Source of the DNA: an uncultured archaeon
GTDB taxonomy: Archaea; Asgardarchaeota; Thorarchaeia; Thorarchaeales; Thorarchaeaceae
Reading direction: 5' to 3'
DNA length: 32,000 nt
Assembly (NCBI GenBank): GCA_964610875.1
Contig: CAZSWP010000016.1
Coordinates: 37,730 to 69,729 of the forward strand
Numbering within the stretch: the stretch's first letter is position 1; every line of letters begins with the position of its first letter. A model generated the notes under the pieces. It saw only the letters and a list, made by a program, of their open reading frames with translations. It made no database searches and was not told the DNA's origin. A program made the translations under genes and the position numbers. Shown piece by piece: positions 5,466-28,432 of the stretch.

Positions 5466-5467
5466 AT

Positions 5468-6508: not shown

Positions 6509-6546
6509 GGATATGATACTTCGAACGATACTCGGAGTCTTACAAA

Positions 6547-8585: not shown

Positions 8586-8619
8586 CAGAATTCACCAGTA
8601 CTCAACAAAACTATCTGAA

Positions 8620-8631
8620 TACTATATAGTA
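8620..8631 (-). promoter_or_regulatory. Putative TATA box (perfect 12-nt palindrome TACTATATAGTA) for the 467-aa gene
   Basis: Located 35-46 nt upstream of the ATG at 8585. It is the only strong TATA-like element there. Confidence 0.35.
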
Positions 8632-9549: not shown

Positions 9550-9820
9550 GTTGCATTCTTACAAATAGACCTATAGCTAGAAAGAGTCAATTGGCCTCTA
9601 TTACTAGCAATCTTTGCTCTAGTGACCATGTACAAAGTGTAAGCTCAGTTTTGTTACTTGACATGGAGAAATTACGGTGGGTAAAATTTTCATCCCTCTC
9701 GGAGTATGGGAGTGGACTTATTATCTAGCTTTGATAGACTACAACCTGTAGGTGCGAAGCTTGTCAGAAGAGAAGAAGTATCCACGAAAGAGATATGCAC
9801 CACTCTGTACTGTCAAAAGC

Positions 9821-10123
9821 ATGTCTGCAGATACAAAGAACCCCGTTCGAATACTTTGTATTGTAGTGGAAACTGCAGAAGGCGCAGCTCTTGTTCAAGA
9901 TATCTTTGATAAAATGGACAACCAGGGGTCAATCAGAGTCATTGTTCCTGAAGAATTAGAACTCGCCAAAAAGTACATGTTGATTGGAGATATTAGTGAG
10001 GACTCAGAAGGCCTTAAGTTAATTGCATCATCTGTGTATGATGTCGACACTCTTGATGTCAAGCTTTACAAGGAAACAGTGAAATTGGAGGAAAGAGTTA
10101 ACCGAGCTAACCACTCACCATAA
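9821..10123 (+). CDS. Small OB-fold protein, RPA3/RPA14-like (tentative)
   Basis: I prefer the ATG at 9821 (100 aa) over the tracked GTG at 9752. The pattern is NPVRILCIVVE...GSIRVIV...YMLIGDIS...LKLIASSVYDV..LDVKLYKETVKLEE. It resembles the beta-barrel plus C-terminal helix of eukaryotic RPA3 (as recalled: KPVCFVGRLE...GTIEL...VEVVGRV...FDLGLYNEAVKI). The gene sits directly upstream of pcn. Confidence 0.4.
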   Translation: MSADTKNPVRILCIVVETAEGAALVQDIFDKMDNQGSIRVIVPEELELAKKYMLIGDISEDSEGLKLIASSVYDVDTLDVKLYKETVKLEERVNRANHSP

Positions 10124-10141
10124 TTCACTGGAGGAACCATA

Positions 10142-10897
10142 ATGTTTCACGCAACACTGGATAGCACCAAGACATGGAAACAGATTGTGGACTCGTTAGC
10201 CACACTCTTAACAGAGGTCCACTTTGTCATTTCCGAAACTGGTGTTACACTACGTCAATTAGACTCTTCAAAGGCTGCGATGGTTGACCTGACGCTTCCA
10301 TCAGGAGTCTTTCAGGAGTATGCATGTAAGGGAGAACATGATGTCTGTCTGGGAATGGATGAACTGGCCAAAGTCAGTAAGAGAATGGCCGGGGATGATG
10401 TACTTGATTTCAGTCTGGATGAGAAGGAGAAACGTTTTGAAATCAGGATGACGGGGCAAGCTGAGCGAAGATTCAGCCTGCAATTATTGACTCCCCCTGA
10501 AGACCGTAGCAAGAAACCGAATCTCTCCTTTGAAGTGAAAGCAGAACTAGATGCAAACTCCTTCAAGCAAGCAGTCAAAGACATTGGTGTTATATCTAAT
10601 CATATCAAAATCGTTGCAGACGGTGACACATTGCGTTTCCTTGGAGAAGGGGACACTGGTGAAGCGGAGGTCTCTCTGAAGAAAGGTGATGATGACTCTC
10701 TCCTCATCGATCTCAAGGTAGACAAGAAAGCCACTGCAATGTATGCTCTCAGCTACTTGTCGGAGATAGCAAAGGCGATGGCAAGTAATAATCTCATGTT
10801 ACAGTTCAGCTCTGACAAACCCATTCTGTTGGACTTTGCAGTTGCTGAGGGTGGAAGAATCAGTTTCATCTTAGCACCCAGAGTTGAGAGAAGGTAA
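10142..10897 (+). CDS. pcn: DNA polymerase sliding clamp PCNA
   Basis: 251 aa. N-terminal WKQIVDSLATLLTEVHFVISETGVTLRQLDSSKAAMVDL and C-terminal ISFILAPRVE are typical of archaeal PCNA. Confidence 0.9.
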   Translation: MFHATLDSTKTWKQIVDSLATLLTEVHFVISETGVTLRQLDSSKAAMVDLTLPSGVFQEYACKGEHDVCLGMDELAKVSKRMAGDDVLDFSLDEKEKRFEIRMTGQAERRFSLQLLTPPEDRSKKPNLSFEVKAELDANSFKQAVKDIGVISNHIKIVADGDTLRFLGEGDTGEAEVSLKKGDDDSLLIDLKVDKKATAMYALSYLSEIAKAMASNNLMLQFSSDKPILLDFAVAEGGRISFILAPRVERR

Positions 10898-10922
10898 TCC
10901 GTGATGACAATGGTGCTTCCAG

Positions 10923-12323
10923 ATGGCGAACGATACCAAGGAACGTACCCGTAGGTTCCTTCAGCTACTGTTCCAAGATTATTATAGAACACATCATGAT
11001 AGTGTGAATATTCCTGCCAAAATCCATATGCGTGAATTTGGTGTTGAGAGCTGGTACTATACTTGGAGATGCAATATTCGTGTTGAAAAGACAGAAGACG
11101 GGTCTGAGATCAAATCAGGATGTGGTGAGAGTGGTACATCATTTCTACCTCTCACAGAATGTCCATCTTGTGGGTCCACCGACTTAGATATCACAAATTG
11201 GTCCCGTCATCTGGGTTTTAAATCAAAGGACCTTCTTCTTAACGAGATTGTCACAAACGTTCCTCACAGTGTTTATCATTCATCCGCATTCTACGAGTTT
11301 CCTATTGCAAGAAGAATGATTGAGAAAAACTGGCAAGGTGCAGAATTAGTCTTTGATATAGATGCTGACCATCTTGACATTCATTGTGCTGATAATCATG
11401 ATGCGTGGATGTGCTCTAATCCAGAGTGCGAACATAAAGGAACTGGAAGACCGCCGGAAAAATGCCCCGAGTGTGAAGGTGATTCCTTTTCATCTTTCAA
11501 ATGGCTATGTGATAGATGCTTGGAACGTGCCAAACGCGATACAGTCAAACTTTACGATAAATTTCTCCTAAAACACTTTGGTATAGATGAAGACAAGACA
11601 ATCCTGAATTACAGTGGTCACAGAGGGTATCATATTAGAGTTAATGACCCAAAGATTCACGAACTTGATTCTAATGCACGTTCTGAGATTGCTCGATACA
11701 TCACAGGAGATGGGCTGAGTAGCAGCATAACCTCTAAAGGAAACCTACGAGTGATTCCCACAGGCGAACTAAGAAGCTGGCAATTACCCTCCATTGCAAG
11801 ACGTATTGCTGATGCCATGATTGCATTTATTGACAATCTTGACTTTTATGAAGGAAATGACAGATGGCTAAAGTATTTGGTTGAGGGGAAGAAGGATGCA
11901 ATTGACGGTCTTTCTAGAAACCCCCCGATTTTGAGTTACAAGGTAAAAGGCATTGGAGTAAAATCGTGGCAAGAGATTGTCGAACAGGCAATCACGTTCT
12001 ACAATGCCGAAATTGATTTGCCTGTCACACATGACATACATCGTGTAATCAGGCTCATAGGCAGTCTTAATGGCAAAACCGGATTTACTGTGAACCACCT
12101 AACTCGTGATCAGCTGGACGACTTTGATCCATTTGCAGACCCTTTGGCATTTGCAAACAATCAGTCCATAAAACTGAGAATCCCTGAAATGAGATTCAGT
12201 GTTCCGGAATTCAGAATAGGTGATGACCTATATGGTCCGTATAACAATACCAATGAGGAACTTCCAATGCCTGCAGCAGTGTTCCTAATGTGCAAGGGGA
12301 TGGCATCCTATGAGCGATCCTGA
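10923..12323 (+). CDS. priS: DNA primase catalytic (small) subunit PriS, with an extra N-terminal Cys-containing insert
   Basis: Catalytic motifs ELVFDIDADH and SGHRGYHIRV. The canonical Zn stem is CSNPECEH...CPECEG. At 466 aa it is long for PriS. An extra segment of about 50 aa (aa 44-93: WRC...GCG...CPSCG) lies between the REFG and SRHLGF motifs. Confidence 0.88.
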   Translation: MANDTKERTRRFLQLLFQDYYRTHHDSVNIPAKIHMREFGVESWYYTWRCNIRVEKTEDGSEIKSGCGESGTSFLPLTECPSCGSTDLDITNWSRHLGFKSKDLLLNEIVTNVPHSVYHSSAFYEFPIARRMIEKNWQGAELVFDIDADHLDIHCADNHDAWMCSNPECEHKGTGRPPEKCPECEGDSFSSFKWLCDRCLERAKRDTVKLYDKFLLKHFGIDEDKTILNYSGHRGYHIRVNDPKIHELDSNARSEIARYITGDGLSSSITSKGNLRVIPTGELRSWQLPSIARRIADAMIAFIDNLDFYEGNDRWLKYLVEGKKDAIDGLSRNPPILSYKVKGIGVKSWQEIVEQAITFYNAEIDLPVTHDIHRVIRLIGSLNGKTGFTVNHLTRDQLDDFDPFADPLAFANNQSIKLRIPEMRFSVPEFRIGDDLYGPYNNTNEELPMPAAVFLMCKGMASYERS

Positions 12324-12963
12324 TTATATCAATATCCAAAACGCATGGGAAGATGAGCAAGATGACTCCGCACTGAAGGATCTTGAGGATCTCAGACTGA
12401 GTAAGATGGCAGAAGCATTATCTCGAGTACGACTACAGCTTGCTGAAACTCCATCTGAAAAGGAGATTGAAGCAGAAATCCTTACCCAACAAGCCCTCAA
12501 TATGGAGTATATGCTGAAAGACCTCCTACATATGCGTCGTAACAAAATCATCTCAGATGTTCTACGAGGTGAAACCCCTTCAGGTATAATGACATTATCC
12601 GAGGAAGAGTTCTACAATCGCCTCTCAAGAGCTTTTACCAGCCACACAGAGTTCACCGAAGAAGTCCTTACTGGTACACCTCCTCCCACATTGCGAAAAG
12701 AGGATCCTCCTAAGAAGAAGAAAACTAAAGATAAGAAAAAATCTGAGAAGGAACCTGATGATGGATTGCAATACATTATGGTGCGATTCACTCGTGAAGT
12801 AGAAGAGGAATTCGTTGGGATGGACGAGATAGTGTACGGCCCATTTGGAAAAGAGGACATTGCAACAATCCCCACTGCTAACGCAAGAATCTGGCTTCGT
12901 AATGGTACAGCAGTACGTGTCATTGCAGACGATATTGAGAGGGAAGATGACAATGAAGAGTGA
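12310..12963 (+). CDS. GINS subunit (Gins51/Gins15 type, A-domain then B-domain)
   Basis: A-domain helices (LLHMRRNKIISDVL). B-domain YIMVRFTREVEEEFVGMDEIVYGPFGKEDIATIPTANARIWLRNGTAVRV matches the archaeal Gins51 C-terminus as I recall it. It overlaps priS by 14 nt; priS-gins51 adjacency is known in archaea. The inter-domain linker is Lys-rich (PPKKKKTKDKKKSEKE). Confidence 0.75.
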   Translation: MSDPDYINIQNAWEDEQDDSALKDLEDLRLSKMAEALSRVRLQLAETPSEKEIEAEILTQQALNMEYMLKDLLHMRRNKIISDVLRGETPSGIMTLSEEEFYNRLSRAFTSHTEFTEEVLTGTPPPTLRKEDPPKKKKTKDKKKSEKEPDDGLQYIMVRFTREVEEEFVGMDEIVYGPFGKEDIATIPTANARIWLRNGTAVRVIADDIEREDDNEE

Positions 12964-13252
12964 GAATATTCTTGAATCACTTCACAAAATCCGGCAACTG
13001 GTAGATGCGATACAACGCGATATGACCAGTGACTCACAAAAGATGCGTGTTGCTCTGTCAAATATAATGCGTCTTTTGAATAGGGAGAAGGGGACTATTA
13101 CTGATCTTGGTGGTACCCCAGATGACCTTCTAAAGTACCTACTAACCCTGTCAAACGAGCATGAGAACAAGATAGTGATAACAATCGACAGTGTCACAAA
13201 AGACCTCGATGAACTGATTATAGCGGTAAATCGTGATGTACGAAACGGCTAA
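12947..13252 (+). CDS. Hypothetical small helical protein (about 101 aa)
   Basis: The tracked ORF 12845..13252 overlaps the GINS gene heavily. ATGs at 12947 and 12953 give MTMKSENILESLHKIRQLVDAIQRD..., which overlaps the GINS stop by only 11-17 nt (operon-style coupling). No family recognised. Confidence 0.45.
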   Translation: MTMKSENILESLHKIRQLVDAIQRDMTSDSQKMRVALSNIMRLLNREKGTITDLGGTPDDLLKYLLTLSNEHENKIVITIDSVTKDLDELIIAVNRDVRNG

Positions 13253-13256: not shown

Positions 13257-13487
13257 ATGATTTCCTCCTACCTATACATGTCACCAAACAAGAGATGGAT
13301 TTTGTATATCGCGGCCATTATTTGCATAGCACTTGCACTAATCGGTGGCATGATGTATCCCCTAAACCAGCTTGATATCATCAGTATTCTAGCATATGAA
13401 GTAGTGGTCATCTTTTTTATGTTGGCCATCATCAAACTCATTTATGATAGGGGACTTCCAGACAACACAGAATATGAACCAATGTAG
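13257..13487 (+). CDS. Hypothetical small membrane protein (two predicted TM helices)
   Basis: WILYIAAIICIALALIGGMMY and IISILAYEVVVIFFMLAIIKLIY. I prefer the ATG at 13257, just after the upstream stop, to the tracked GTG at 13233. Confidence 0.45.
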   Translation: MISSYLYMSPNKRWILYIAAIICIALALIGGMMYPLNQLDIISILAYEVVVIFFMLAIIKLIYDRGLPDNTEYEPM

Positions 13488-13593
13488 CACGCTGTCGTTC
13501 TTTTGTCGAACCACATCTTTTAATATCGGATTAAATCAGGCTCAATTACAAGCTAGCCTATGTGCCATTTAGATATCTGGTGGTTCGACTCTT

Positions 13594-14136
13594 ATGACAG
13601 AAACAGACGAAAAAACTGGTCCTCCTGAAACACTGGTTGAACCTGTTGACATGTCCACGCTGGACCAGGGATTCAGGGATGAAATAAAGAGCATGCCCCA
13701 TGGCGAAGCACTCTCAGCCTGTTTTGCATGTTCTACTTGCACTGCCGCATGTCCAATTGCAAACATGTGGGAATACAAACCACATCAGCTAATTCGAATG
13801 ATAATTCTTGGTATGCGGGAAAAGGTACTGTCCTCAGACGAGATCTGGTTATGCCTGACTTGTTTTGAGTGTCAGGAACGATGTCCTCAGAATGTACGTG
13901 TCACTGACATCTTATTTGATTGTAAGAATTTAGCAGCTGAAGAAGGAAAGATTCCTAGCAACATCGTGGCCCTTGCTCAATCATTGATGTCAGATGGTCA
14001 GCTCTATGTCATCACAGCGGATTGGGAACGTGAAGATATGGAACTAGAACCAGAGCTTCCTGGTCTTTCTACTGATGAAATCAAAGAGATTTTGAAAAAC
14101 ACTCGGACCGGTAAAATTGTGGGAGGAGATGAGTAG
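13594..14136 (+). CDS. hdrC: Heterodisulfide reductase subunit C-like (2x[4Fe-4S])
   Basis: Two CxxCxxCxxxCP motifs: CFACSTCTAACP and CLTCFECQERCP. The stop directly abuts the hdrB ATG. Confidence 0.85.
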   Translation: MTETDEKTGPPETLVEPVDMSTLDQGFRDEIKSMPHGEALSACFACSTCTAACPIANMWEYKPHQLIRMIILGMREKVLSSDEIWLCLTCFECQERCPQNVRVTDILFDCKNLAAEEGKIPSNIVALAQSLMSDGQLYVITADWEREDMELEPELPGLSTDEIKEILKNTRTGKIVGGDE

Positions 14137-15003
14137 ATGCCATCATATAATCTCTATATGGGCTGCAGTGTTCCAGCTAACTACCCCAACTATGAAGCAT
14201 CAATTTTCAAAGTAGCGGAACTATTTGATATGGAACTGAACTACATGGAAGGGGTGGCATGTTGTGGAAGTCCTAATCTTCGAGCAATAGATTATCTAGG
14301 CTGGGTGCTTGTTAATGCCAGAACTCTAGCTATTGCTGATAAGAATGGACAAGATATCATCACACCATGCAATGGCTGTTTTGGTTCACTAAAAGATGTT
14401 CATCACTTACTAATGCATGATAAAGAATATGTAAAGAAGGTAAACAAGGAATTAAAGAAAGAGGGCCTTGAGTTTACTGGACGAGCAAAACCTCGGCATT
14501 TTGTTGAGGCACTCTATACAGACATAGGCATTGAAGAAATAAAGAGCAAAATCAAAAAACCACTAGACGGTGTAGGGATTGCAATACACTATGGTTGTCA
14601 TCTTTTGCGTCCTAAAGATGTCACTGAGATTGAACCCGAGTATGTTGCTGAGCTAGTTAGTGCCACTGGCGCAAGTGTTGTTGAATATCATCTCTGGAAA
14701 CAATGTTGTGGCGCAACGGTATTGCCTGTGAACGAACCTCTGGCAATTCGACTAGCACGTGATAAACTCAAATCAATGAAAGATGCTGGTGCTGAATTTG
14801 CAACAGTGATCTGTCCTGCATGCTGCAACCAGCTTGATCTACAACAGTTGGGATTGAAGGAGTCGTATGGTGAAGAATACAACCTGCCAGTACTGTTCTA
14901 CCCTCAGATACTTGGTCTTGCTTTGGGTCTTGACGAGGAAACAGTTGGTCTTGAGATGAATCGTGTATCAGCTAATCCGATTCTTGAACATCTTTCAGGT
15001 TGA
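14137..15003 (+). CDS. hdrB: Heterodisulfide reductase subunit B-like (two CCG domains)
   Basis: CCG-domain cysteine motifs VACCGSPN...CNGCFG and QCCGATV...CPACCNQ. 288 aa, typical HdrB size. Confidence 0.85.
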   Translation: MPSYNLYMGCSVPANYPNYEASIFKVAELFDMELNYMEGVACCGSPNLRAIDYLGWVLVNARTLAIADKNGQDIITPCNGCFGSLKDVHHLLMHDKEYVKKVNKELKKEGLEFTGRAKPRHFVEALYTDIGIEEIKSKIKKPLDGVGIAIHYGCHLLRPKDVTEIEPEYVAELVSATGASVVEYHLWKQCCGATVLPVNEPLAIRLARDKLKSMKDAGAEFATVICPACCNQLDLQQLGLKESYGEEYNLPVLFYPQILGLALGLDEETVGLEMNRVSANPILEHLSG

Positions 15004-15016
15004 GGTGTGTAGTAAG

Positions 15017-16267
15017 ATGTCTGACCCAGTCCTTGTCATTGGTGCTGGCGTTGCAGGGATGACCGCAGCTGTTGAGCTTGCGGACTCTGGTATCAAGACC
15101 ATATTGGTAGAACGTCTAAATACCATTGGTGGCAATGCTCTTGACCTCTACAAAGCATTTCCCACCGATGATTGTTTCTATTGTTTTGAAGGAAACAGGT
15201 GGCGTCCTGGCATCAGAAAATGTTTCTATAGAAGTGCTATGACTGACCAGCCAAATATTGACCTTAAAATGAACACAACTGTTGAGAAGATCACAGGGGA
15301 TCCTGGTAAATTTGAAGTCACATTGAAGATCGGTCCAAAATATATTGACCCGAAGAAATGTATAATGTGTGGACTCTGCCTGAAGGAGTCAAAGGCATTT
15401 CAATTAATATCCCCACAATGTCAACCACAAGCAGTAACATTCAATCCTGAATTACTTGATGATGCTGCAAAGAAAGCAACAGAAGACTGTCCTACAAAAG
15501 CAATTGATCTAGATGCTAAACCCTCTGAGGATATAATAAAGGTTGCAGATATTGTGATTGCAACTGGTTTTCATGAGATGCAACCCTCCACAATCGACGA
15601 ATACGGTTATGGAAGGCACGCAAATGTAATAACACAACTCGAACTAGCCAAGATTCTTGACCCTCTTGAAGAATCTGGGGGTAAACTTGTTCGACCCTCT
15701 GATGGTAAGACTGCCAAAAATGTGATGATGGTACAATGTGTTGGTAGCAGAGATGAGAATTACTATCCATATTGTTCCAAGATATGTTGTGTATTTGCAT
15801 TAAAACATGCTAATATTATCGTCAACGAACTAGGTGCTGCAAATGTCAGTGTCGTATACATGGACATTCGTACCTACGACCGACATGAACGATACTACCG
15901 CGACTCCCGTACTGGTGGTGTTGACTTCATAAGAGGACGTATCACAAGCGTTGTTCCCGATACGGATGGGACTTTGACAATCACTGTTTATGACTCCTTA
16001 CTAAATCAATATCTAAAGACCGAAGTAGATTTGTTAGTGCTATCATCAGCTCTTGAACCCCCTGAAGGTGCGAATGAGTTGATTGAAGCCTTAGGTCTAA
16101 AGAGTGCTAGTGGGTTTGTCGCTCCTGAGGATCCCACTTCGGAGAACGAAGTTGTGGCAGGTCCCCATGTTTATGCATGCGGCACTGCCTTAGGACCAGC
16201 TGAAGTACCAGAGAGTGTCACACAAGCACGGGCTGCTGTGTCAAAGATTATTCAGAGCAGGATGTGA
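15017..16267 (+). CDS. hdrA: HdrA-like FAD/Fe-S flavoprotein, short form (about 416 aa; no C-terminal ferredoxin or MvhD part)
   Basis: ATG at 15017 with GAGGTG upstream (tracked GTG at 14963 is less likely). Dinucleotide fold VIGAGVAGMTAA. HdrA signatures FPTDDC and QCVGSRD...YCSKICC. The inserted Cys motif is partly degenerate (CIMCGLC...DCP). Confidence 0.8.
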   Translation: MSDPVLVIGAGVAGMTAAVELADSGIKTILVERLNTIGGNALDLYKAFPTDDCFYCFEGNRWRPGIRKCFYRSAMTDQPNIDLKMNTTVEKITGDPGKFEVTLKIGPKYIDPKKCIMCGLCLKESKAFQLISPQCQPQAVTFNPELLDDAAKKATEDCPTKAIDLDAKPSEDIIKVADIVIATGFHEMQPSTIDEYGYGRHANVITQLELAKILDPLEESGGKLVRPSDGKTAKNVMMVQCVGSRDENYYPYCSKICCVFALKHANIIVNELGAANVSVVYMDIRTYDRHERYYRDSRTGGVDFIRGRITSVVPDTDGTLTITVYDSLLNQYLKTEVDLLVLSSALEPPEGANELIEALGLKSASGFVAPEDPTSENEVVAGPHVYACGTALGPAEVPESVTQARAAVSKIIQSRM

Positions 16268-16271
16268 TACA

Positions 16272-18437
16272 ATGACAAACACTAAGACTCCCATTCTACT
16301 ATGCACCTGTGGAAAACAACTTGGCCTAGACTATGATTTCCTTTCTTCCGAACTCAAGAAACTACCCGATGCAGGGTCCATAACAATATGTGATACTCTA
16401 TGTCAAGAAGATGGTCTTGCTGAGATTGTATCTAAACTTGATGAGAGTGAAGGCAGACTTGTAATAGCCGCCTGTACCAGTCAGAAGATACAACCTCGTA
16501 TTGACAACTTTGTGTCCGATAAAGGTAAAGACCCATCATCAGTGCGTTATGTAAATATCAGAGAGCACTCTGCTTGGGTACATCCTGACCCTAAATCGGC
16601 GAGCAAGAAATCACTTGATATGATTCGTGGTGTTCTTGCATCCATGTCTACAGTCGAACCTCTAACAATTGATGAGAAAGATATTGCAAATCATGTGACA
16701 GTCATTGGTGGCGGGATTGCAGGAATTGAAGCGGCACTCGGTCTTGCTTCACTTGGCTATGATATAGCCCTGATTGAGAAGGATGAACATCTCGGTGGAC
16801 ATGTTATTCAGCTACCTGTGGTTGCTCCTACTGAAAAATCCGGGAAAGAGATTATGAGCGGTCGCCTTAAAGATATAGAAGCAAGTGATAAGATCAAAGT
16901 AATTACAGACGCCCATGTAAAGTACGCTGAGGGTGAGATGGGCGATTTCAAGATACATTACATTTCAAAAGATAAAGAAGAGAATGTCTTGAACACATCT
17001 GCAATTGTCATGGCAACTGGCTTCAAAGAGTTCAAACCTACAATGATGGATGAGTATCGGTACGGCAAGAATCCTGATGTGATAACCCAATATGAACTCT
17101 CAAAGAAACTGGCCGAAGATGACCTCACAAGAGTATCAGATGGTGGACCAGTCAAAGATGTCGTTATGATACAATGTGTGGGCAGTCGTTCAGAAGAGTA
17201 CAAGCGAGACTGTAGTAAGCTCTGTTGCACGTTTGCCATTGATAATGCACTTGAAATCAAAGAACGAGTCCCAGATGCACAAGTACGGATTGTGTACATG
17301 GACATACGAGTACCCTTTGAGAATGAAATGATATACAAAAAATCACGCGAGATTGGTGTTGACTACATTCGTGGGCGAATTAGCAAGATCTGGGAGAATG
17401 ACAATGAAACACATGTTCAGTTCTACGATTCCCTCATGAATAAGTACTTTGAAGTCAGTCCTGACCTTGTTGTACTCTCTTCTGCTATTCTACCTCCTGA
17501 TGGAATCGAAATCCTATCTGAAACAATGGGTTATATTTTGGAAGATGATGGTCATATCAAAGAGCTCTACGGGAAGCTACGACGAAATGAAACTCGTCGT
17601 CGTGGTGTACTTGCTGTGGGAGCAGTTACAAGACCACAATTTGTATTCGAAGCGGTAACAGACGCCCAAGCCGGCGCACTTGTGATACACAATGAACTAC
17701 AGAGTGGCAAAATCAAGAAACTCGCCCGAGGTGCTGTATTAGATATTGACGAATGTGTTGGTTGTAGTCTGTGCGAACAACAGTGTCCCCGTGGAGTTCC
17801 TCTTATGATAGAACAGACAGAAGCTGAGGCAGAAGATGAAGATCAGAAATTACTTTTCAAAGCCGCTATTGACACATTGAACTGTCATGCATGTGGAGTC
17901 TGCCAGAGTCTCTGCCCCTCTGGAGCAACACAATTGAATTTCTTGACAAATGAACAGCTCTGGTCTCAAATAGAGAGCACCCTCAATAATGCTACTGCTG
18001 AAGATGCAATTACTCTCTGTTTTTATTGTGAAGAATGTGCTGTGTCAACTATTGACATTGTAGGCACACGAAAAACGGAATACGCTGCAAACACACGCCT
18101 GATACCCGTACCCTGTGCTGGTCGAGTCAGTATCATTGATATTTTGAAGGGTTTCGAGAACGGTGCAAGCACAGTCATGATTGCTGCATGTGAAACCGAT
18201 CGTTGTCATGTGGGTGGCACCGGTAATGAGATTGCACAGGTTCAAGTTGATGTTGCCCGTGAGATCTTGGAGGCGATTGGTTGGAATGGAGAAAGGGTAG
18301 AGATGTTTAGAATGTTCAGTGCAGAACCTGACCGTTTCACCAACGCTATCAATGAAATGACAAGACGCGCCCATGAGCTAGGGGCTTCCCCTCTGCACAA
18401 AGGCACCGCTGGAAAATGGAAGGAGGTTGAAAAATGA
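16272..18437 (+). CDS. hdrA: HdrA-like flavoprotein fused to a 2x[4Fe-4S] ferredoxin and an MvhD-like domain
   Basis: ATG at 16272 (MTNTKTPILLCTCG). N-terminal Cys domain, VIGGGIAGIEAA and QCVGSRS...DCSKLCC. Ferredoxin motifs CVGCSLCEQQCP and CHACGVCQSLCP. The C-terminus CFYCEECA...IPVPCAGRVSIIDILKGFENGASTVMIAACETDRCHVGGTGNEIA matches the MvhD/FlpD fold. Confidence 0.85.
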   Translation: MTNTKTPILLCTCGKQLGLDYDFLSSELKKLPDAGSITICDTLCQEDGLAEIVSKLDESEGRLVIAACTSQKIQPRIDNFVSDKGKDPSSVRYVNIREHSAWVHPDPKSASKKSLDMIRGVLASMSTVEPLTIDEKDIANHVTVIGGGIAGIEAALGLASLGYDIALIEKDEHLGGHVIQLPVVAPTEKSGKEIMSGRLKDIEASDKIKVITDAHVKYAEGEMGDFKIHYISKDKEENVLNTSAIVMATGFKEFKPTMMDEYRYGKNPDVITQYELSKKLAEDDLTRVSDGGPVKDVVMIQCVGSRSEEYKRDCSKLCCTFAIDNALEIKERVPDAQVRIVYMDIRVPFENEMIYKKSREIGVDYIRGRISKIWENDNETHVQFYDSLMNKYFEVSPDLVVLSSAILPPDGIEILSETMGYILEDDGHIKELYGKLRRNETRRRGVLAVGAVTRPQFVFEAVTDAQAGALVIHNELQSGKIKKLARGAVLDIDECVGCSLCEQQCPRGVPLMIEQTEAEAEDEDQKLLFKAAIDTLNCHACGVCQSLCPSGATQLNFLTNEQLWSQIESTLNNATAEDAITLCFYCEECAVSTIDIVGTRKTEYAANTRLIPVPCAGRVSIIDILKGFENGASTVMIAACETDRCHVGGTGNEIAQVQVDVAREILEAIGWNGERVEMFRMFSAEPDRFTNAINEMTRRAHELGASPLHKGTAGKWKEVEK

Positions 18438-21352
18438 AGAAGTCCTCTACGCCTCCTGCTGTTCCTCCAAAAAGACAACGAATGTTAGAAATGATTCTGG
18501 CATTAGGAGGTCTTAAGGAAGAAAAAGCTATTCCACTAGGTAAAGTGAATGAAGCAATTGAGGATCTGAAAGATGAACTCAGTCCGTTACTTGAATCTAT
18601 ATTTGCATTTCCAGAAACCTATTTTACCGACTTTCAGAAAGCTATTGAACAAGTAGATCTCTCCTCAGAGATCAATGACCCAGGGGTTCTCCAATCAACA
18701 ATTGAGCCTCTTAAAGAGGCAGTCACTATCTCTGACACAGCTTCTTTGAAAGAGATCCTTAGTATGTTTGAAGAATCTCTCAAAGCTTCTGAATCTGTTG
18801 GAGAAGAGGAATCCGCGTTCCAGAAAAATATAGGGGCAATAAAAGCCGCACTCAAGACTGACCCTGAAACTGCTCTACTCTTACTTCAGGAATATTTGGG
18901 CATCACTTCTCGCTATGGTCAACCACCTTGTCATGACGCCTGCCCTGCTGGTGTACATACACAGAGGTTTGTCAACCTCATGCGCGATAAGCAGTTTGAT
19001 GAGGCTTTAGCGCTCATGCGAAGTACTTACCCATTCCCTGGCACATTAGGTCGTGTATGTAATGCACCCTGTGAGGAAGGCTGTCAAAGGGGTCAGATTG
19101 ACCAATCAGTAAGTATTAGAAACCTTCACAGATTCCTAGCTGATAATGAACGAGCAAGTGGAAAGATTCATGAACCAACTCCTGCTATTGACAAAGAACA
19201 AAGAGTTGCAGTAGTCGGAGCAGGTCCTGCTGGAATTGGCTGTGCCTATGATTTAGCACGAATGGGTTATCCTGTTACTATATTTGAAACAAAACCTGAG
19301 AATGGTGGCCTTCTACGATATGGAATCCCCTCATATCGTCTTCCAAGAGATGTTCTTGATGAAGAGATCACCTATGTCAAGAAGCATGGTGTAGATATTA
19401 TCAACGGTGAACAAATCAAGAAACCAAGTGAACTTCTTGCAAAAGGTTTCAGTGCAGTGTTTATTGGAACTGGGGCATCTTCTAGTCGTAAGTTGCGTAT
19501 CGAAGGAGAAGATGCAACTGGTGTATATCACGCACTGGAATTCTTAGATGAATTCAATCTTGGTAAGAAATTCAAACTGGGTAACCGAGTAGCAGTCATT
19601 GGTGGCGGAAATGCAGCTATAGACTCAGCACGTGTCGCTCTTAGGTTGGGTGCTAAGGAAGTTGTCATTGTTTATAGACGATCCAAAGAAGAAATGCCTG
19701 CAATCGCCTCCGAGATTGAAGATGCTGAACACGAAGGTATAGACATCAAAATACTATCTTCCCCAGTCAAAATTATTGAAGAAAATGGAAAAGCCACAAC
19801 TTTACGTTGTATACAAATGAAATTGGGAGAACCTGATTCATCGGGTAGAAGAAGACCCGTTCCTATACCTGACTCAGAGTTCGACATAGATATTGACAGT
19901 GTGATTGTTGCTATTGGTCAGGGTATTGATGCTGAAGATTACTTCCCAGACCTCGAGTATTCAGAATGGGGCTTGATAGAAACAGACTCCAATACTTGTC
20001 AAACAAGTGTTGAAGGTATATTTGCTGGTGGCGATGCAGTAACGGGTCCAGCAACTGTGGTCAAAGCAGTTGGTGCTGGAAAGAAAGCTGCAAAGGTAAT
20101 AGACAGTTTTCTGCAAGGAGAAGAAATGGTTCAAGACATACCTGTCTATGATAAGATTATTGCCACTGTTGCTGCGGAAAAAGCCCAAGCAAAAGAGGGC
20201 AAACGGGCGGAAATGCCAGTATTGGAACCAGAGTCACGTGGTGAGAGCTTTGATGAAGTCGAACTTGGATTTGACCCTCCTATGGCTGTCACAGAGGCTG
20301 GCAGATGCATCAATTGCTCCCTTTCCAATATGGATGTTACCGTCTATGGTGATAGACTCGCCTCAGAAATCAGAAAGAAAATCATGAAGCAATTTGTCCA
20401 GGATGAAGCTGAAAGGGGTCTTATTCTCTCTATTGTCAGAGAATATGGAGCATTGACAGCAAAGGACTTGCATGAGAAGACAGACATCCCACAGAATCGT
20501 GTATTTGCACATCTCGTTCAAATGAAGAGGAATGAAGATTTGGTCTTGGCTGGAGAGGACCACGGCTATGTCCTATACGATGTTCATCGCACTGCAACCG
20601 AGATTGAAACCGCAATTCAAACAGTATCAAGTCTATCTCAACAGTTAGCAAAAGCAAGAAAGGAATTAGATGAAATCCTTGCTGATCTCAAAGCTACCGA
20701 TATTGGGAAACTGGCTGCTGCTCTTGAAACCTATTCAAAGGCACGTGACAAATTGACCAAGGTGACAGTCAGCGGATCTGTAATTGCAGAGGATGCTCTC
20801 TCTCAAGTAGAAGAGAAAATCCAGTCTGCAGTCTTGCTAGCATATAGGACTCGGGCAAAGCTTCCATCCACTCGACCAAAGGTTGCCTTAGAGAGCCTTA
20901 CAGATGTTGATGTACCATCAGTATTGGAAGAATACAAGAGTCAGATGGGTTATGCTCCACTTCTTGGATTTGGCACCATCGAATGGAATCACTCCAGATG
21001 CCTGGGTTGTAAGTCTTGCGAACTCGAATGTCCAGAAGATGCAATCAATCTCGCCCCTGTACTTCGTATACCAGAGGTCTTTGAATTTACAGAAGAATCC
21101 CTTGACAATCTCCCCGGCAATAGGAGTCTTTTCTATAGGACTGTCAAATCACTTGCGGTGAAAAAACCGGTGGATAATATCATTCTAGAAGAAGAATCTC
21201 CAGGTTTCGGGTCAGTGGAAATTGACCTTTGGCTCTGTGTTGCCTGCCGCACATGTGTTAGGCGTTGTCCTGGCCCAGAAGATGGTGCATTAGACCTTGA
21301 ACTCAAGTGGAGCCTTCCTGAGGTAGTGAAACAGATAACTTCTGGTGTATAA
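18434..21352 (+). CDS. 972-aa multidomain oxidoreductase: unknown N-terminal helical region, GltD/NfnB/SudA-like NAD(P)H flavoprotein, winged-helix-like segment, coiled coil, and C-terminal 2x[4Fe-4S] ferredoxin
   Basis: PPCHDACPAGVHTQRFVNLM...FPGTLGRVCNAPCEEGCQRG (GltD-type Fe-S region). VAVVGAGPAGIGCAYDLA (FAD) and VAVIGGGNAAIDSAR (NAD(P)H). LILSIVREYGALTAKDLHEKTDIPQNRVFAHLVQMKRNEDLV (wHTH-like). CLGCKSCELECP and CVACRTCVRRCP (ferredoxin). The ATGA start overlaps the upstream stop. Confidence 0.8.
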   Translation: MKKSSTPPAVPPKRQRMLEMILALGGLKEEKAIPLGKVNEAIEDLKDELSPLLESIFAFPETYFTDFQKAIEQVDLSSEINDPGVLQSTIEPLKEAVTISDTASLKEILSMFEESLKASESVGEEESAFQKNIGAIKAALKTDPETALLLLQEYLGITSRYGQPPCHDACPAGVHTQRFVNLMRDKQFDEALALMRSTYPFPGTLGRVCNAPCEEGCQRGQIDQSVSIRNLHRFLADNERASGKIHEPTPAIDKEQRVAVVGAGPAGIGCAYDLARMGYPVTIFETKPENGGLLRYGIPSYRLPRDVLDEEITYVKKHGVDIINGEQIKKPSELLAKGFSAVFIGTGASSSRKLRIEGEDATGVYHALEFLDEFNLGKKFKLGNRVAVIGGGNAAIDSARVALRLGAKEVVIVYRRSKEEMPAIASEIEDAEHEGIDIKILSSPVKIIEENGKATTLRCIQMKLGEPDSSGRRRPVPIPDSEFDIDIDSVIVAIGQGIDAEDYFPDLEYSEWGLIETDSNTCQTSVEGIFAGGDAVTGPATVVKAVGAGKKAAKVIDSFLQGEEMVQDIPVYDKIIATVAAEKAQAKEGKRAEMPVLEPESRGESFDEVELGFDPPMAVTEAGRCINCSLSNMDVTVYGDRLASEIRKKIMKQFVQDEAERGLILSIVREYGALTAKDLHEKTDIPQNRVFAHLVQMKRNEDLVLAGEDHGYVLYDVHRTATEIETAIQTVSSLSQQLAKARKELDEILADLKATDIGKLAAALETYSKARDKLTKVTVSGSVIAEDALSQVEEKIQSAVLLAYRTRAKLPSTRPKVALESLTDVDVPSVLEEYKSQMGYAPLLGFGTIEWNHSRCLGCKSCELECPEDAINLAPVLRIPEVFEFTEESLDNLPGNRSLFYRTVKSLAVKKPVDNIILEEESPGFGSVEIDLWLCVACRTCVRRCPGPEDGALDLELKWSLPEVVKQITSGV

Positions 21353-21444
21353 GGCCAAGTGAAATTTACTGCCATTGCAAAATCCACAAATATACTAGAA
21401 GTCAATCTTAGGCATTACTCTATTCACGAGGGGCTTGCCAAATA

Positions 21445-22647
21445 ATGATTGACTTTTCACTTACTACGGAACAACGGGAATTACAGAAAAAGGCACGTGA
21501 ATTTGCACAAGAATACATGTTGCCTTATGCCGCATATTATGATGAAACCGGAGAGTTCCCAATGCCCATCATCAAAAAGGCATGGGAACAGGGTCTTATG
21601 AACCTCGGAATACCTGAGGAGCTTGGTGGACCCGGTCTCGGCATTGTCGAAGCCTGCATCGTGGTTGAAGAAATGGCTGCTGGTTGTGCAGGCATGACCA
21701 CCAGCATCTATGCCAATTCACTTGGACCTGAACCCATACTGATTGCTGGAAGTGATGAACAGAAGGAGAAATATCTTCGCCCACTGATCGAAGAACCAAA
21801 ACTCGCATCCTTTGCGTGCTCTGAACCCGGAATGGGTAGTGATGTTGCAGGTATAAAGACCACTGCCACAAAAAATGGAGATGAATACATCCTCAATGGT
21901 TCTAAGTTCTGGATTACTAACGCACCATATGCCGATTATTTCACAGTCTTTGCCTCACTTGACCCCAGCAAACGACACAAGGCACTATGTGCGTTCATTG
22001 TGGATGCAGATACAGAGGGTGTCAAGACTGGACGTCCTATTGAGAAGATGGGACATAGGGCTTCAGCTACATCTAATATTGTTTTCAGAGATGCACCAAT
22101 CCCAGCTGAAAACCTTCTGGGCATGGAAGGCATGGGCTTCTTGATTGCCATGCAGACCTTTGCTATGACTCGTCCTGCAATAGCTGCATTTGCCACTGGT
22201 CTTGCTCGTGCAGCAATGGAATACGCTAGAGATTATGCCGACCGAAGAGAAGCATTCACCAAGAAACTCAAGGAATTCCAAGCAATTCAGTTCAAACTTG
22301 CAGAGATGTATATGAAAGTTGAAGCCTCTCGGATGCTCTATTTGAAAGCAGCTTGGGCTGCAGACACATCAGGTGACTCTACGGTACCTGCCTCGATAGC
22401 CAAAGCATATTCTACTGATGCTGCAATGTGGATTGCTAGTGAAGCTTTACAGATTCATGGGGGTTATGGCTACATCAAGCAATATCCTATTGAGAAACTC
22501 TTCAGAGATGCAAAACTCTACCAGATCTATGAAGGTACCAGTGAGATCCAACGCCTGATTCTTGGGCGTCATGTACTCGACGGATATGATCCAGCAATGG
22601 AAAAGATACCCAAATGGACGGGGCAGAAAGCACCAGACTGGGAGTAG
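21445..22647 (+). CDS. Acyl-CoA dehydrogenase (short/medium-chain, butyryl-CoA dehydrogenase-like)
   Basis: 400 aa. Motifs [23 protein letters not shown] and the C-terminal [17 protein letters not shown] are classic for this family. Confidence 0.9.
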
Positions 22648-22682
22648 GGCATTTTTGGCCCCTCCCTCCTCATTTTCTTTCC
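22648..22682 (+). terminator. Putative terminator (short GGGC/GCCC hairpin with T5, then a pyrimidine-rich T tract)
   Basis: GGGCATTTTTGGCCCCTCCCTCCTCATTTTCTTTCC follows the acyl-CoA dehydrogenase stop directly. Archaeal termination commonly uses oligo-T tracts. Confidence 0.35.
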
Positions 22683-22739: not shown

Positions 22740-22901
22740 ATGCCCGGTTCACATGGATCACTAACAAAGGCTGGAAAGGTACGCGAGTCCACTCCTAAAG
22801 TTAAAGGGCGTGAACGTCATACTCCCATTCCTCGTGTTCGAAATAAGAGGAACTTTCAGAAGCGATTTGTACGCGGCAGAACTGTAGGACAACAAAAGTA
22901 A
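22740..22901 (+). CDS. rps30e: Ribosomal protein eS30 (S30e)
   Basis: 53-aa ORF, below the track's length cut-off. My translation is MPGSHGSLTKAGKVRESTPKVKGRERHTPIPRVRNKRNFQKRFVRGRTVGQQK. It contains the eS30 signature GSLxKAGKVRxxTPKV. A TATA-like CTTATATG lies at 22698-22705. Confidence 0.8.
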   Translation: MPGSHGSLTKAGKVRESTPKVKGRERHTPIPRVRNKRNFQKRFVRGRTVGQQK

Positions 22902-24053: not shown

Positions 24054-24878
24054 TCAACAATCGTTCTTGATACCCATCCCATCTCTGTGATATCTGCCAA
24101 ATTCTTCTATTTTCTCAAGTCTAGTTTGGTCAAATACAGGACCGTCCATACAGACCAGTTCTCCTGTGGGATCCAGACTACAGGTCCCACAGATACCACA
24201 TCCACATTTCATGTATCTCTCCAGTGATGCTTCAATTGCAATACCCTGCTCTGTAGCAAGTTTGAAGGTTAAATGCATCATCAGTTCAGGTCCACAGGTG
24301 TAAATCCTATCAAAGTCATTGTTTCTCAACAGAGTCCTGAGTGCATCCGTAGCTAATCCCTTTTGTCCCATTGAACCATCATCAGTAGTAATCACGAGAT
24401 TGAAGACTCCACTGGAAATCTTCTCCAAGTCATAGAGAATGAGCTCATCCTTTGTCTTTGCTGCCCATATTGCAGTCACTTTGATATCCTGTTCTAACAA
24501 AACCTTACAGAGAAAATACAATGGTGCTACCCCAACTCCTCCGCCTACTAGAAGAGCATGTTCATAGTCAGAAATGGTAAATGAATTACCAAAAGGCCCT
24601 CTAATACCTATCCAGTCCCCAGTCGTAAGCTTACTCAGAGCTTCTGTAGCGGGTCCAATAATCTGTACGGTAATACCCGCTGTTGGCTTCTTCCAAGATG
24701 CAACACTCATAGGTATCTCATCCACATCAGGAATCCAGACCATTACAAATTGACCTGGGAGAAAGTCCCTATCAGGCATATCGAAATAGAGAGTGACTGC
24801 TCTAACAGACTCCTCTACGGCCTTTTTTATCTGCACAGATATTGGTGCTCCAGCTAGCTTATCCACATCCATGGTCAT
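24054..24878 (-). CDS. pyrK: Dihydroorotate dehydrogenase (class 1B) electron-transfer subunit PyrK
   Basis: Ferredoxin-reductase-like FAD/NAD fold with the C-terminal 2Fe-2S motif CGCGICGTC...C. It overlaps pyrD by 4 nt. Confidence 0.88.
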   Translation of the reverse strand: MTMDVDKLAGAPISVQIKKAVEESVRAVTLYFDMPDRDFLPGQFVMVWIPDVDEIPMSVASWKKPTAGITVQIIGPATEALSKLTTGDWIGIRGPFGNSFTISDYEHALLVGGGVGVAPLYFLCKVLLEQDIKVTAIWAAKTKDELILYDLEKISSGVFNLVITTDDGSMGQKGLATDALRTLLRNNDFDRIYTCGPELMMHLTFKLATEQGIAIEASLERYMKCGCGICGTCSLDPTGELVCMDGPVFDQTRLEKIEEFGRYHRDGMGIKNDC

Positions 24879-25744
24879 TTCCTCCCTGCAAGTCCCACGA
24901 TATCTGATATATTCTTCAAGCCATGTTCTTCCAGATATCCTTTGACACCCTGTTTAATCTCACTAAAGACTTCTACTCCTTTGAGAAGGGCGGTCCCAAT
25001 CTGAATGGCGCTTGCTCCTGCAAGATGCATCTCAACAGCATCTTCCCATGTTGTCACCCCTCCTACTCCAACTATAGGGATGTCCAGCGCATGATACAGA
25101 TCATAGATACATCTGACAGCAATAGGAAACACTGGTGGTCCTGAGAGGCCTCCTACAAGGTTTCCCAGTACTGGTCGTTGCTGTTGAATGTCTATCTTCA
25201 TAGCTCTTACAGTGTTTATTGCGACAACTGCATTAGCTCCGGCACGCTCAGCTTCTTTTCCTACCGATACAATGTCGGATGCATTCGGTGTTATTTTTGC
25301 GAGAAGTGGAACATCGACCACATCTCGAACAGTCTTCACATAGTCATAAGTCAGGTCTGGACTGTGGGATATTGTAGCAATCTCTGCATGTGGACATGAG
25401 AGATTCAACTCAATTGCATCAGGCCGCATCTCAATACCCTTGATGGCCACTGACCTGGTTTCTTCAGGAGTACTTCCAAATATACTGAGCACAACAGGAA
25501 CCTTGTGTGCTCGGAGTATTTCTATCTCCTCCTCGAAAGCATCGATACCTGGATTGGTGAGGCCAACAGCATTAATCAGTCCGCCGTGGGTAGGGGTCAT
25601 GACCGGTCCAGGATGTCCTTTTCTTGGGACTGGTCCAATGGACTTGGTGACTACTGCATCAGCTCCTGCAAGATAAACACGTTTCATGATGGATGCCGTA
25701 ACACCTAGAATCCCTGAGGCAAGCCAATATCCTTCAATCTTCAA
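24875..25744 (-). CDS. pyrD: Dihydroorotate dehydrogenase class 1B catalytic subunit PyrD
   Basis: TIM-barrel motifs AVVTKSIG, ELNLSCPH (active-site Cys), GGLSGP and IVGVGGV. TTG start. The N-terminus looks about 10-15 aa shorter than I expect for the family. Confidence 0.88.
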   Translation of the reverse strand: MKIEGYWLASGILGVTASIMKRVYLAGADAVVTKSIGPVPRKGHPGPVMTPTHGGLINAVGLTNPGIDAFEEEIEILRAHKVPVVLSIFGSTPEETRSVAIKGIEMRPDAIELNLSCPHAEIATISHSPDLTYDYVKTVRDVVDVPLLAKITPNASDIVSVGKEAERAGANAVVAINTVRAMKIDIQQQRPVLGNLVGGLSGPPVFPIAVRCIYDLYHALDIPIVGVGGVTTWEDAVEMHLAGASAIQIGTALLKGVEVFSEIKQGVKGYLEEHGLKNISDIVGLAGRK

Positions 25745-28405: not shown

Positions 28406-28432
28406 ATCAAGACTATTGTGGTTTTTGTTTCG

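Follow-up and report, generated by a model that had tools for sequence, protein, structure and literature searches.

Two questions are raised by a run of six genes, all in one direction, at positions 13594-22647 of a 32,000-nucleotide (nt) stretch of DNA from an uncultured archaeon of the Thorarchaeaceae (contig CAZSWP010000016.1; "the window" denotes the whole stretch analysed): what a heterodisulfide reductase (Hdr)-type operon may catalyse in such an organism, and whether the acyl-CoA dehydrogenase (ACAD) encoded directly behind it is part of the same enzyme. The genes encode HdrC, HdrB, a short HdrA, a long HdrA fused to MvhD (HdrA-MvhD), a protein of 972 amino acids (aa) here named G5, and the ACAD. 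Read jointly, the evidence favours, with a probability of roughly 55%, a cytoplasmic HdrABC-type flavin-based bifurcating or confurcating complex, conserved among the Asgard archaea, that would be NADPH-linked in this lineage; to judge from sequence comparison, the ACAD is probably an ordinary enzyme of the medium-chain acyl-CoA dehydrogenase (MCAD) type, a lineage-specific conserved neighbour and not an obligatory subunit.

The HdrBC core and the HdrA pair

The hdrC gene (13594-14136, +; 180 aa) ends with a TAG that abuts the ATG of hdrB at 14137 (0-nt gap); hdrB (14137-15003, +; 288 aa) is followed by a 13-nt gap and the short hdrA (15017-16267, +; 416 aa, true ATG at 15017) by a 4-nt gap, after which come hdrA-mvhD (16272-18437, +; 721 aa, true ATG at 16272) and the G5 gene (18434-21352, +; 972 aa). 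The start of the latter shares a 4-nt ATGA overlap with the stop of hdrA-mvhD, by which G5 is predicted to be translationally coupled to HdrA-MvhD. A 92-nt gap separates G5 from the ACAD gene (21445-22647, +; 400 aa). These junctions, read directly from the sequence and the list of open reading frames (ORFs), are those of the initial annotation, which had described five co-directional genes from 13594 to 21352 with gaps of 0-14 nt or 4-nt overlaps, then a 92-nt gap and an ACAD. Pfam and NCBIfam scans of the candidate genes also agree with its observation that mvhA/mvhG, formate dehydrogenase and etfAB genes are absent from the 32 kb, and the domains and the content of the window bear out an Hdr-type module that has no hydrogenase and stands outside methanogenesis.

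HdrC gives a Fer4_8 match and has two [4Fe-4S] sites, the CxxCxxCxxxCP motif occurring twice with 8/8 cluster cysteines invariant in 64 orthologues. In HdrB a pair of CCG domains (92 bits) contains the two CCG motifs (CX31-39CCX35-36CXXC), with 10/10 cysteines invariant in 67 orthologues; the protein is predicted to be the catalytic subunit with two non-cubane [4Fe-4S] clusters. Both subunits have the motifs of HdrABC heterodisulfide reductases, and the best family models of HdrB, HdrC and HdrA are those of the CoB-CoM heterodisulfide reductase, as expected if the cluster encoded a canonical methanogen-type enzyme acting on CoM-S-S-CoB. Such an identity is nevertheless hardly credible: the scores are far under the CoB-CoM-specific NCBIfam equivalog cut-offs (TIGR03288 for HdrB, 269.5 bits vs 345.15; TIGR03290 for HdrC, 101.8 vs 160; HdrA, 288 for the short and 450.8 for the long paralogue vs 1100), no mcr or CoM/CoB genes are found in the window, and the CoM-S-S-CoB cycle is unestablished in Asgard archaea without Mcr (PMC8163825). 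Since the Hdr subunits lie below these cut-offs, the substrate cannot be transferred from the methanogen Hdr, in agreement with the initial annotation, which assigned no substrate to the HdrB CCG site.

Both HdrA paralogues match the HdrA/HdrA2 models, the HdrA2 NCBIfam model being the best match of each, and their features were mapped by alignment to M. wolfeii HdrA, with cysteine conservation assessed in 67-69 orthologues. The short HdrA aligns to residues 146-560 of the M. wolfeii protein and has the thioredoxin-reductase-like FAD core with the CxGxRD...CSxxCC cluster motif, an FPTxDCxxC motif that holds the Cys197 equivalent, and the inserted ferredoxin domain, in which one of two clusters is kept (C115, C118, C121, C158); the N-terminal domain and the C-terminal ferredoxin domain are absent. 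In the long HdrA a 4-Cys N-terminal domain precedes the FAD core with its cluster motif; a 2x[4Fe-4S] ferredoxin domain follows on the C-terminal side and, at aa 582-704, an MvhD/FlpD domain (PF02662, 108.8 bits over the full profile length) with a predicted [2Fe-2S] cluster and six invariant cysteines. This paralogue is devoid of the inserted ferredoxin domain and of the Cys197 equivalent. The features of a single-polypeptide bifurcating HdrA, as in 5ODC, are divided here between two paralogues, which together contain all HdrA modules but one cluster of the insert. On account of these complementary features an asymmetric heterodimer can be proposed, in which each module would occur once and the insert of the short HdrA is the presumed ferredoxin port. 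A formal precedent is QmoA/QmoB, in which a short HdrA is paired with an HdrA-MvhD-like paralogue and QmoA serves as the docking site of another flavoenzyme, AprAB (PMC3333476).

The MvhADG-HdrABC complex (5ODC, 8RVU) is similar to the window's proteins in the two CCG motifs of HdrB, the 2x[4Fe-4S] HdrC, the HdrA FAD core with CxGxRD...CSxxCC and the electron entry through the [2Fe-2S] cluster of MvhD; in fact, among solved structures its HdrA chains come closest to both window HdrAs. It differs in that the window has no MvhA/MvhG, distributes the HdrA functions over two paralogues and not over a homodimer, carries MvhD fused to HdrA, and has the extra G5 as well as the sub-cut-off scores. HdrA2B2C2 of Methanosarcina acetivorans has an HdrA with a C-terminal MvhD fusion and works without a hydrogenase (PMC5296606); in contrast, the window's long HdrA reaches only 451 bits vs 1100, the cluster also encodes a second, short HdrA and G5, and electrons are predicted to come from NADPH via a GltD-type module instead of from F420H2. 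QmoABC of sulfate reducers also combines a short (QmoA) and a long, MvhD-bearing (QmoB) HdrA paralogue with an HdrC-like Fe-S module (PMC3333476), and the window HdrC matches the N-terminal part of QmoC (63 bits, the first 107 of 360 model positions). However, the HdrE-like membrane haem domain of QmoABC is lacking, HdrC being a soluble protein of 180 aa; no apr genes occur in the window, and a true HdrB with CCG motifs and G5 are encoded instead, so that the cluster does not qualify as a QmoABC.

The G5 protein and its NADPH module

The fifth protein is a putative Asgard-specific adaptor and not simply a GltD-like protein, the GltD-like portion being confined to residues ~160-630 of 972. The N-terminal helical region (aa 1-158; 18434..18907, +) has a PKR motif, whose K7 and R8 are invariant across Asgard homologues, no Pfam match, and a predicted local distance difference test (pLDDT) score of 65-88 in the model. 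The conserved C-terminal part (aa 635-972; 20336..21352, +) comprises a MarR/TrmB-like winged helix (model pLDDT 75-87; wHTH Pfam matches under the gathering thresholds), a 2x[4Fe-4S] ferredoxin domain split by an insert of ~65 aa (CxxCxxCxxxCP at 856-866 and 935-945) and, between the two, a region of long helices or coiled coil.

The inserted NfnL/GltD-type module (aa ~160-630; 18911..20323, +) has the two-cluster N-domain and the FAD and NAD(P)H motifs of the GltD/NfnB/NfnL flavoproteins. It matches Fer4_20 (67 bits), Pyr_redox_2 (127 bits) and PRK12771 (492 bits) and carries the FAD motif GAGPAG at 262, the NADPH-type motif GGGNAA at 390 with YRR at 414-416, and the cluster cysteines C166, C170, C209, C213 and C217, together with C625 and C628 on a permuted segment. 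This last segment, 'RCINC', follows the module yet aligns with the N-terminus of T. maritima NfnB; C625/C628 and C166 would complete the second cluster site, whereas C170, C209, C213 and C217 would form the first. The nearest solved relatives of residues 160-630 are 9bov_A (405 bits), 9n5u_A (399), 8oh5_C (356) and 4ylf_B (343), that is, the Bfu-type NfnABC/StnABC enzymes (9BOV, 9N5U, 8OH5) and NfnB (4YLF), with which the FAD, NADPH and two-cluster motifs are shared; NfnA/StnA also have the permuted 'RCxxC' segment after the domain, as in G5. In contrast to the Bfu-type enzymes, neither BfuB/BfuC (HydB/C-like) nor an Fdh/NuoG-like domain is found in G5 or in the window, and the module is embedded in an unrelated scaffold and coupled to Hdr.

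The homology of the module to NfnB/NfnL (343 bits to 4ylf_B) and the retention of its NADPH and FAD motifs and of both cluster sites also bear on a different arrangement, in which the FAD of G5 would be a second, Nfn-like bifurcating site and HdrA a relay or second stage of a two-stage or transhydrogenase-like machine; in NfnSL-type enzymes the FAD of NfnB/NfnL is the bifurcating flavin (PMC12018979). This arrangement appears distinctly improbable. The nearest relatives of the module are the Bfu-type NfnA/StnA, in which the FAD is a plain NADPH entry: the NfnL-like domain of NfnABC oxidises NADPH and relays single electrons via two clusters to a bifurcation site located elsewhere (PMC11829005). 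Moreover, most orthologous complexes are without the module and, differently from NfnAB/NfnSL, no NfnA/PyrK-type small subunit is encoded alongside G5, the sole PyrK-like gene (24054-24878) being on the opposite strand and paired with PyrD. The PyrK-like gene (NAD_binding_1 and DHODB_Fe-S_bind, NfnA fold) overlaps the PyrD gene within 24054-25744 (-), and by its domains the pair is a dihydroorotate dehydrogenase B and not an Nfn partner for G5.

The occurrence of G5 was followed in 74 loci of GTDB species genomes, retrieved with the C-terminal part of G5 as query, and the window proteins were compared with them by tblastn; the loci bear mostly Thorarchaeota labels, nine being labelled Promethearchaeota/Hermodarchaeota and a dozen 'archaeon' or 'uncultured archaeon'. 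The order hdrC-hdrB-hdrA(short)-hdrA/mvhD-G5 is intact in all 56 loci of the 74 that span the whole cluster. The usual Thorarchaeota G5 is a protein of ~754 aa without the flavin domain, which shows 35% identity to the window G5 over aa 10-130 and 60% over the C-terminal 336 residues, and nothing for ~160-630. The GltD-like segment occurs in 7/74 Thorarchaeota species loci, and 62 of the 74 have the N- and C-terminal parts of G5 and no GltD segment; in one lineage a G5 of 1219 aa combines the module with both winged-helix repeats. The suggestion of the initial annotation that the complex is NAD(P)H-linked through a GltD-like protein is consequently sustained for this locus, where a full NfnB/NfnL-type entry module is present, and it fails as a general description, the module being an insertion in 7/74 loci within a non-flavin adaptor.

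Beyond these genomes the protein is rare. The names attached to homologues of G5 and HdrA-MvhD are almost exclusively those of Thorarchaeota; a phmmer search with the C-terminal part of G5 against 1.84 billion representative proteins gave only 47 matches, including Helarchaeota/Lokiarchaeota proteins of ~735-747 aa with 25-33% identity, and a profile search with the distant G5 homologues gave only 5 proteins. In four Lokiarchaeota/Helarchaeota loci (L085-L088) G5 lies between hdrA-mvhD and hdrC-hdrB, in the order two double-HdrA genes of ~1020-1170 aa, mvhD, a coiled-coil gene of 93-101 aa, short hdrA, hdrA-mvhD, G5, hdrC and hdrB. By tblastn, the short HdrA, HdrA-MvhD, HdrB and HdrC of L085 and L086 are 36-44% identical to those of the window and the C-terminal part of G5 is 26-33% identical, and no GltD segment is detected in these two loci; for L087 and L088, G5 has Fer4 families alone in its Pfam list. 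Short hdrA, hdrA-mvhD, G5, hdrC and hdrB are therefore co-located in the window, in 56/74 species loci and in the four Lokiarchaeota/Helarchaeota loci, from which it follows that G5 is integral to the Asgard Hdr module and that, taking outgroup and Thorarchaeota loci together, the NADPH module is restricted to a subset of Thorarchaeota.

Some of these loci show further peculiarities. The two double-HdrA genes (~1020 and ~1150 aa, of which the one further upstream includes an MvhD domain) occupy ~1-6600 of L085-L088 as part of a conserved nine-gene cluster; a supply of the GltD module by these genes in Lokiarchaeota/Helarchaeota was considered and rejected, no match to the G5 GltD segment being found in L085 and L086. 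The mvhD gene of L086 (5524-5904) is called as two ORFs (57 and 48 aa), both with FlpD matches, a split that may be due to an in-frame UGA selenocysteine codon as reported for Asgard MvhD (PMC9723677). In L078 an insertion of ~2.7 kb (6085-8780) parts hdrA-mvhD from G5, and in L061 (CP070658.1, 3000-8750) the upstream hdr genes are replaced by fragments (partial Succ_CoA_lig, Proton_antipo_M) with G5 and ACAD still together; both arrangements could be rearrangements or mis-assemblies.

The winged helix raises the alternative of a redox-sensing regulator, in which G5 would combine its winged helix and Fe-S clusters to control the hdr genes or the ACAD promoter. Weakly detected MarR/TrmB-type winged-helix domains, the Fe-S cluster motifs and a promoter-like motif just downstream of G5 are in line with it. 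Nevertheless this role is very unlikely, as the wHTH matches stay below the Pfam gathering thresholds, the protein is 750-1220 aa long in its homologues and translationally coupled to hdrA-mvhD through the ATGA overlap, it lies mid-operon among the hdr genes in Lokiarchaeota/Helarchaeota, and it has accepted a full NADPH-flavin-FeS module, the clusters of which must pass their electrons on.

Pyridine-nucleotide-linked Hdr complexes are known in other forms. FlxABCD-HdrABC of Desulfovibrio and syntrophs, named by Imachi et al. as present in Asgard archaea (PMC7015854), is likewise a hydrogenase-free, pyridine-nucleotide-linked HdrABC with an MvhD-type connector, FlxD; unlike it, the window has no homologues of FlxA, FlxB and FlxC, its fifth gene is G5, and its nucleotide module is of the GltD/NfnL type, for which NADPH and not NADH is predicted. 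In the type III HdrA-GltD fusions an HdrA complex has gained an NAD(P)H module of the GltD type, with NAD(P)H proposed as mid-potential donor or acceptor and the fusion proposed to give HdrA direct access to it (PMC12054007); in contrast, the module of the window sits in the accessory G5 and not in HdrA, and has GxGxxA/YRR (NADPH-type) vs the GxGxxG reported there. Many proteins of 900-1135 aa from Thorarchaeota, Hermodarchaeota and Promethearchaeota, often annotated as heterodisulfide reductase subunit A, match the GltD-like module of G5 at 43-57% identity; they are taken as HdrA-GltD fusions and are possible donors of the G5 insert.

The adjacent acyl-CoA dehydrogenase and the genomic context

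The ACAD has the three domains of the family (116, 91 and 168 bits) and the features of an MCAD-like enzyme. Among solved structures it is nearest to MCAD of human and pig, with a score of 427 bits and 53% identity across 379 residues, and with the catalytic glutamate E363 (YEGT) corresponding to E376 and W156 to W166 of human MCAD, whereas Bcd and CarC reach ~300 bits (307 and 293; 5OL2, 6FAH). A C-terminal tail at aa 380-399 (GY-PAM-x3-P-x-W-x5-PDF) extends ~20 residues beyond the canonical fold and is kept in the Thorarchaeota orthologues.

According to the initial annotation, the acyl-CoA/enoyl-CoA pair may be coupled to ferredoxin without Etf. In a refined form of this idea, G5 would dock the MCAD-type ACAD, possibly via its tail, onto HdrA-MvhD/HdrBC, so that NADPH or a thiol donor at HdrB is coupled, Etf-free, to the reduction of enoyl-CoA and ferredoxin, as a functional analogue of Bcd-EtfAB. 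With potentials of -320 mV for NADPH, about -450 mV for ferredoxin and about -10 mV for enoyl-CoA, the thermodynamics would be sound with NADPH as donor. The gene lies 70-175 nt downstream of G5 on the same strand in 69/71 informative loci, with variable genes past it, and its conservation equals that of HdrB (75-81% vs 76-79% identity in nine loci compared). The window gives no ETF Pfam match, and no homologue of FixA/FixB was found by tblastn in it or in 88 Asgard loci (84 of them from Thorarchaeota; 1.35 Mb, +/-10 kb). Most G5 proteins are flavin-less, with 2x[4Fe-4S] and interaction modules, which calls for the docking of some partner, and the 62 loci with a flavin-less G5 leave room for the adjacent ACAD or for an unlinked partner; a docking role would also explain the clade-conserved tail, and QmoA, a short HdrA, binds a separate flavoenzyme, AprAB (PMC3333476).

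Several observations nevertheless make such a coupling unlikely. The Lokiarchaeota/Helarchaeota module is without an ACAD (0/4 loci, L085-L088), so that the adjacency is specific to Thorarchaeota; the co-occurrence of dehydrogenase and hdr/G5 genes, which had been suggested as a check, is nearly complete within Thorarchaeota and is not seen in these four outgroup loci. Even among Thorarchaeota, L081 and L071 have lost the ACAD and kept the Hdr genes, with a hemerythrin-PAS gene or a solute-binding protein gene following G5. The genes of PCNA, PriS and GINS and two small ORFs upstream of hdrC are equally conserved in the Thorarchaeota loci, as parts of the same synteny block, and therefore the adjacency of the ACAD is weak evidence of function. 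A promoter-like motif is found upstream of the gene, the characterised relatives of this 53% MCAD-identical enzyme are all Etf-users, and in the GltD-less variants the acyl-CoA potential would be too positive for a mid-potential donor. No iron-sulfur protein is, to our knowledge, on record as exchanging electrons with the flavin of an ACAD. The locus also does not correspond to a Bcd-EtfAB-type system, as EtfA and EtfB are not encoded with the dehydrogenase; two etfAB clusters are reported in a Thorarchaeota metagenome-assembled genome (MAG) (PMC8072921), EtfAB is the usual partner found with the butyryl-CoA dehydrogenases of Asgard archaea (PMC7015854), and the ACAD probably uses an Etf encoded elsewhere. 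For these reasons, namely the outgroups without ACAD, the general synteny, the likeness to MCAD, the promoter-like motif and the EtfAB of Thorarchaeota MAGs, the Etf-free coupling is held to be unlikely. Bcd-EtfAB/CarCDE (5OL2, 6FAH) has in common with the locus a dehydrogenase of the same superfamily encoded adjacent to a ferredoxin-reducing flavin system, and an NAD(P)H, enoyl-CoA and ferredoxin chemistry would be thermodynamically equivalent; it differs from it since no EtfAB is found within +/-10 kb in the Thorarchaeota loci searched, the ACAD is nearer to MCAD than to Bcd, and its association with Hdr is not conserved outside Thorarchaeota.

The transcription signals are partly informative in this regard. 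A BRE/TATA-like archaeal promoter motif, CTTTTAATAT (13517..13526, +), precedes hdrC and is kept in 8/8 aligned Thorarchaeota loci, followed by a Shine-Dalgarno-like GGTGG (13579-13583, +); among these loci the motif (AAACTTTTAATAT) is clearly conserved, and that upstream of ACAD less so. In the G5-ACAD intergenic region (21386..21433) a TATA-like motif of weak conservation, ACAAATATACTAG (21386-21398, +), is followed by a Shine-Dalgarno-like GAGGGG (21428-21433, +); in the aligned loci the TATA-like motif AAnTGACTTATAC and the ribosome-binding site GAGGGAG are partially conserved. No oligo-T tract is present in this intergenic sequence after the G5 stop, whereas a T-rich tract, TTTTT then TTTTCTTT (22652..22681, +), lies directly 3' of the ACAD stop; it resembles an archaeal terminator and may act as one. 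The absence of oligo-T after G5 and its presence after ACAD would suit a common unit; on these signals the ACAD probably has its own promoter, and co-transcription with G5, separate transcription or both are possible.

The rest of the window is a housekeeping island of replication, transcription, rRNA-modification and pyrimidine genes or ORFans according to the Pfam and NCBIfam scans, and includes PolD small subunit, Cdc6, Csl4, RpoL, TFS, PCNA, PriS, GINS51, eS30, PyrK/PyrD, Nop5 and fibrillarin; tRNA and Rfam scans of the window gave no match. The replication genes (PolD small subunit, Cdc6, PCNA, PriS, GINS) span 1007-12963, and in a complete Thorarchaeota chromosome (CP070761.1, L024) the cluster stands at the start of the record, at positions 1-12484, which suggests a location near the replication origin; such proximity may contribute to the unusually rigid synteny. 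Between GINS and hdrC lie two small ORFs of 98 aa (12956-13252, +) and 76 aa (13257-13487, +), the second strongly hydrophobic and probably with two membrane helices, and the hdrC promoter motif sits downstream of both. Small ORFs of similar size occupy the same position in annotated Thorarchaeota loci, with homology confirmed in L009 and weakly in L007 (98-aa ORF); their equivalence to the coiled-coil gene (93 aa) of Lokiarchaeota/Helarchaeota was rejected, no homology being found. An unlisted gene of 53 aa (22740-22901, +) for the ribosomal protein eS30 (PF04758, 38.9 bits) follows just past the terminator-like T tract of ACAD. Two regions are low in GC. The first, of ~2.8 kb (6900-9700, GC 0.34-0.37), extends from the TFS gene (6547-6870) to a 123-aa gene (9752-10123), contains an ORFan of 467 aa (7182-8585, -) without Pfam/NCBIfam match and looks like an insertion, the TFS and 123-aa genes adjoining in L005 and L007-L009; the second (28300-32000, 0.37-0.38) holds the ORFans 29376-30464 and 30532-31284, also without family matches.

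Predicted electron flow and implications

Gene order, domains, cofactor motifs and conservation are observed; how the subunits assemble, which path the electrons take and in which direction the reaction runs are deduced by analogy with Mvh-Hdr, NfnABC and Flx-Hdr. The core of the NADPH-linked Hdr complex favoured here would consist of HdrC, HdrB and the asymmetric HdrA pair, in a Qmo-like arrangement to which the long HdrA would bring MvhD together with its N-terminal cluster domain and C-terminal ferredoxin domain, and the short HdrA the sole inserted ferredoxin domain and the sole Cys197-type ligand. G5 would add a 2x[4Fe-4S] domain and protein-interaction modules, and in the lineage of the window it would have acquired the NfnL/GltD-type NADPH-FAD-2x[4Fe-4S] module, on which the prediction of NADPH as donor depends. 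The reaction would be NADPH + oxidised ferredoxin + HdrB substrate <-> NADP+ + reduced ferredoxin + reduced substrate, where the acceptor at HdrB may be of the disulfide type, not demonstrably CoM-S-S-CoB. Electrons would pass from NADPH to the FAD of G5, through the G5 clusters to the [2Fe-2S] cluster of MvhD and to the FAD of HdrA; from here one electron would be transferred via HdrC to the non-cubane clusters of HdrB and to the acceptor, and the other via the inserted cluster of the short HdrA to ferredoxin.

Different points weigh against this proposal. Complex formation is deduced entirely from sequence and analogy, and every Hdr subunit scores below its NCBIfam equivalog cut-off. For the 62 Thorarchaeota loci with a flavin-less G5 the model names no electron donor to the MvhD/G5 port, and the GltD-type loci are scattered on a rough neighbour-joining tree (concatenated HdrB, short HdrA, HdrA-MvhD and ACAD), whose deep branches are unresolved. 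The AlphaFold2 models are of low confidence, with a mean pLDDT of 60.7 for the full G5 and of 50.6 for its C-terminal 338 aa. Finally, the ACAD holds a near-constant position next to G5, on the same strand and with no oligo-T between, shows an identity of 72-83%, level with that of HdrB, and has a conserved clade-specific tail, which could be a docking motif.

Hydrogenase-free, pyridine-nucleotide-linked Hdr systems are already known (Flx-Hdr, MetFV-Hdr and the type III HdrA-GltD), as are the paired HdrA paralogues of Qmo. As for G5, its NfnL insertion and the split-HdrA architecture as a conserved Asgard module, no description was found in the searchable literature, which, for the Thorarchaeota cluster or a link between Hdr and ACAD, refers to hdrABC, Etf and ACAD of Asgard MAGs in general terms only.

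The models of Asgard physiology, such as syntrophic H2/formate transfer and "reverse flow", rest on Hdr-type complexes in organisms that lack methanogenesis, and the locus delimits a small Asgard Hdr module of very high conservation, with a previously unannotated subunit, G5. It also allows a yes/no test of whether beta-oxidation is wired to Hdr without Etf; if the Etf-free reading of the ACAD were true, it would represent a new non-Etf solution to Bcd-type bifurcation, one that arose among the closest archaeal relatives of eukaryotes and uses a dehydrogenase with 53% identity to mitochondrial MCAD. The natural fusion in one Thorarchaeota lineage names NADPH as one redox partner of the module, and the locus offers an expressible enzyme to probe the balance of NADPH, ferredoxin and a disulfide-type acceptor in Asgard archaea.

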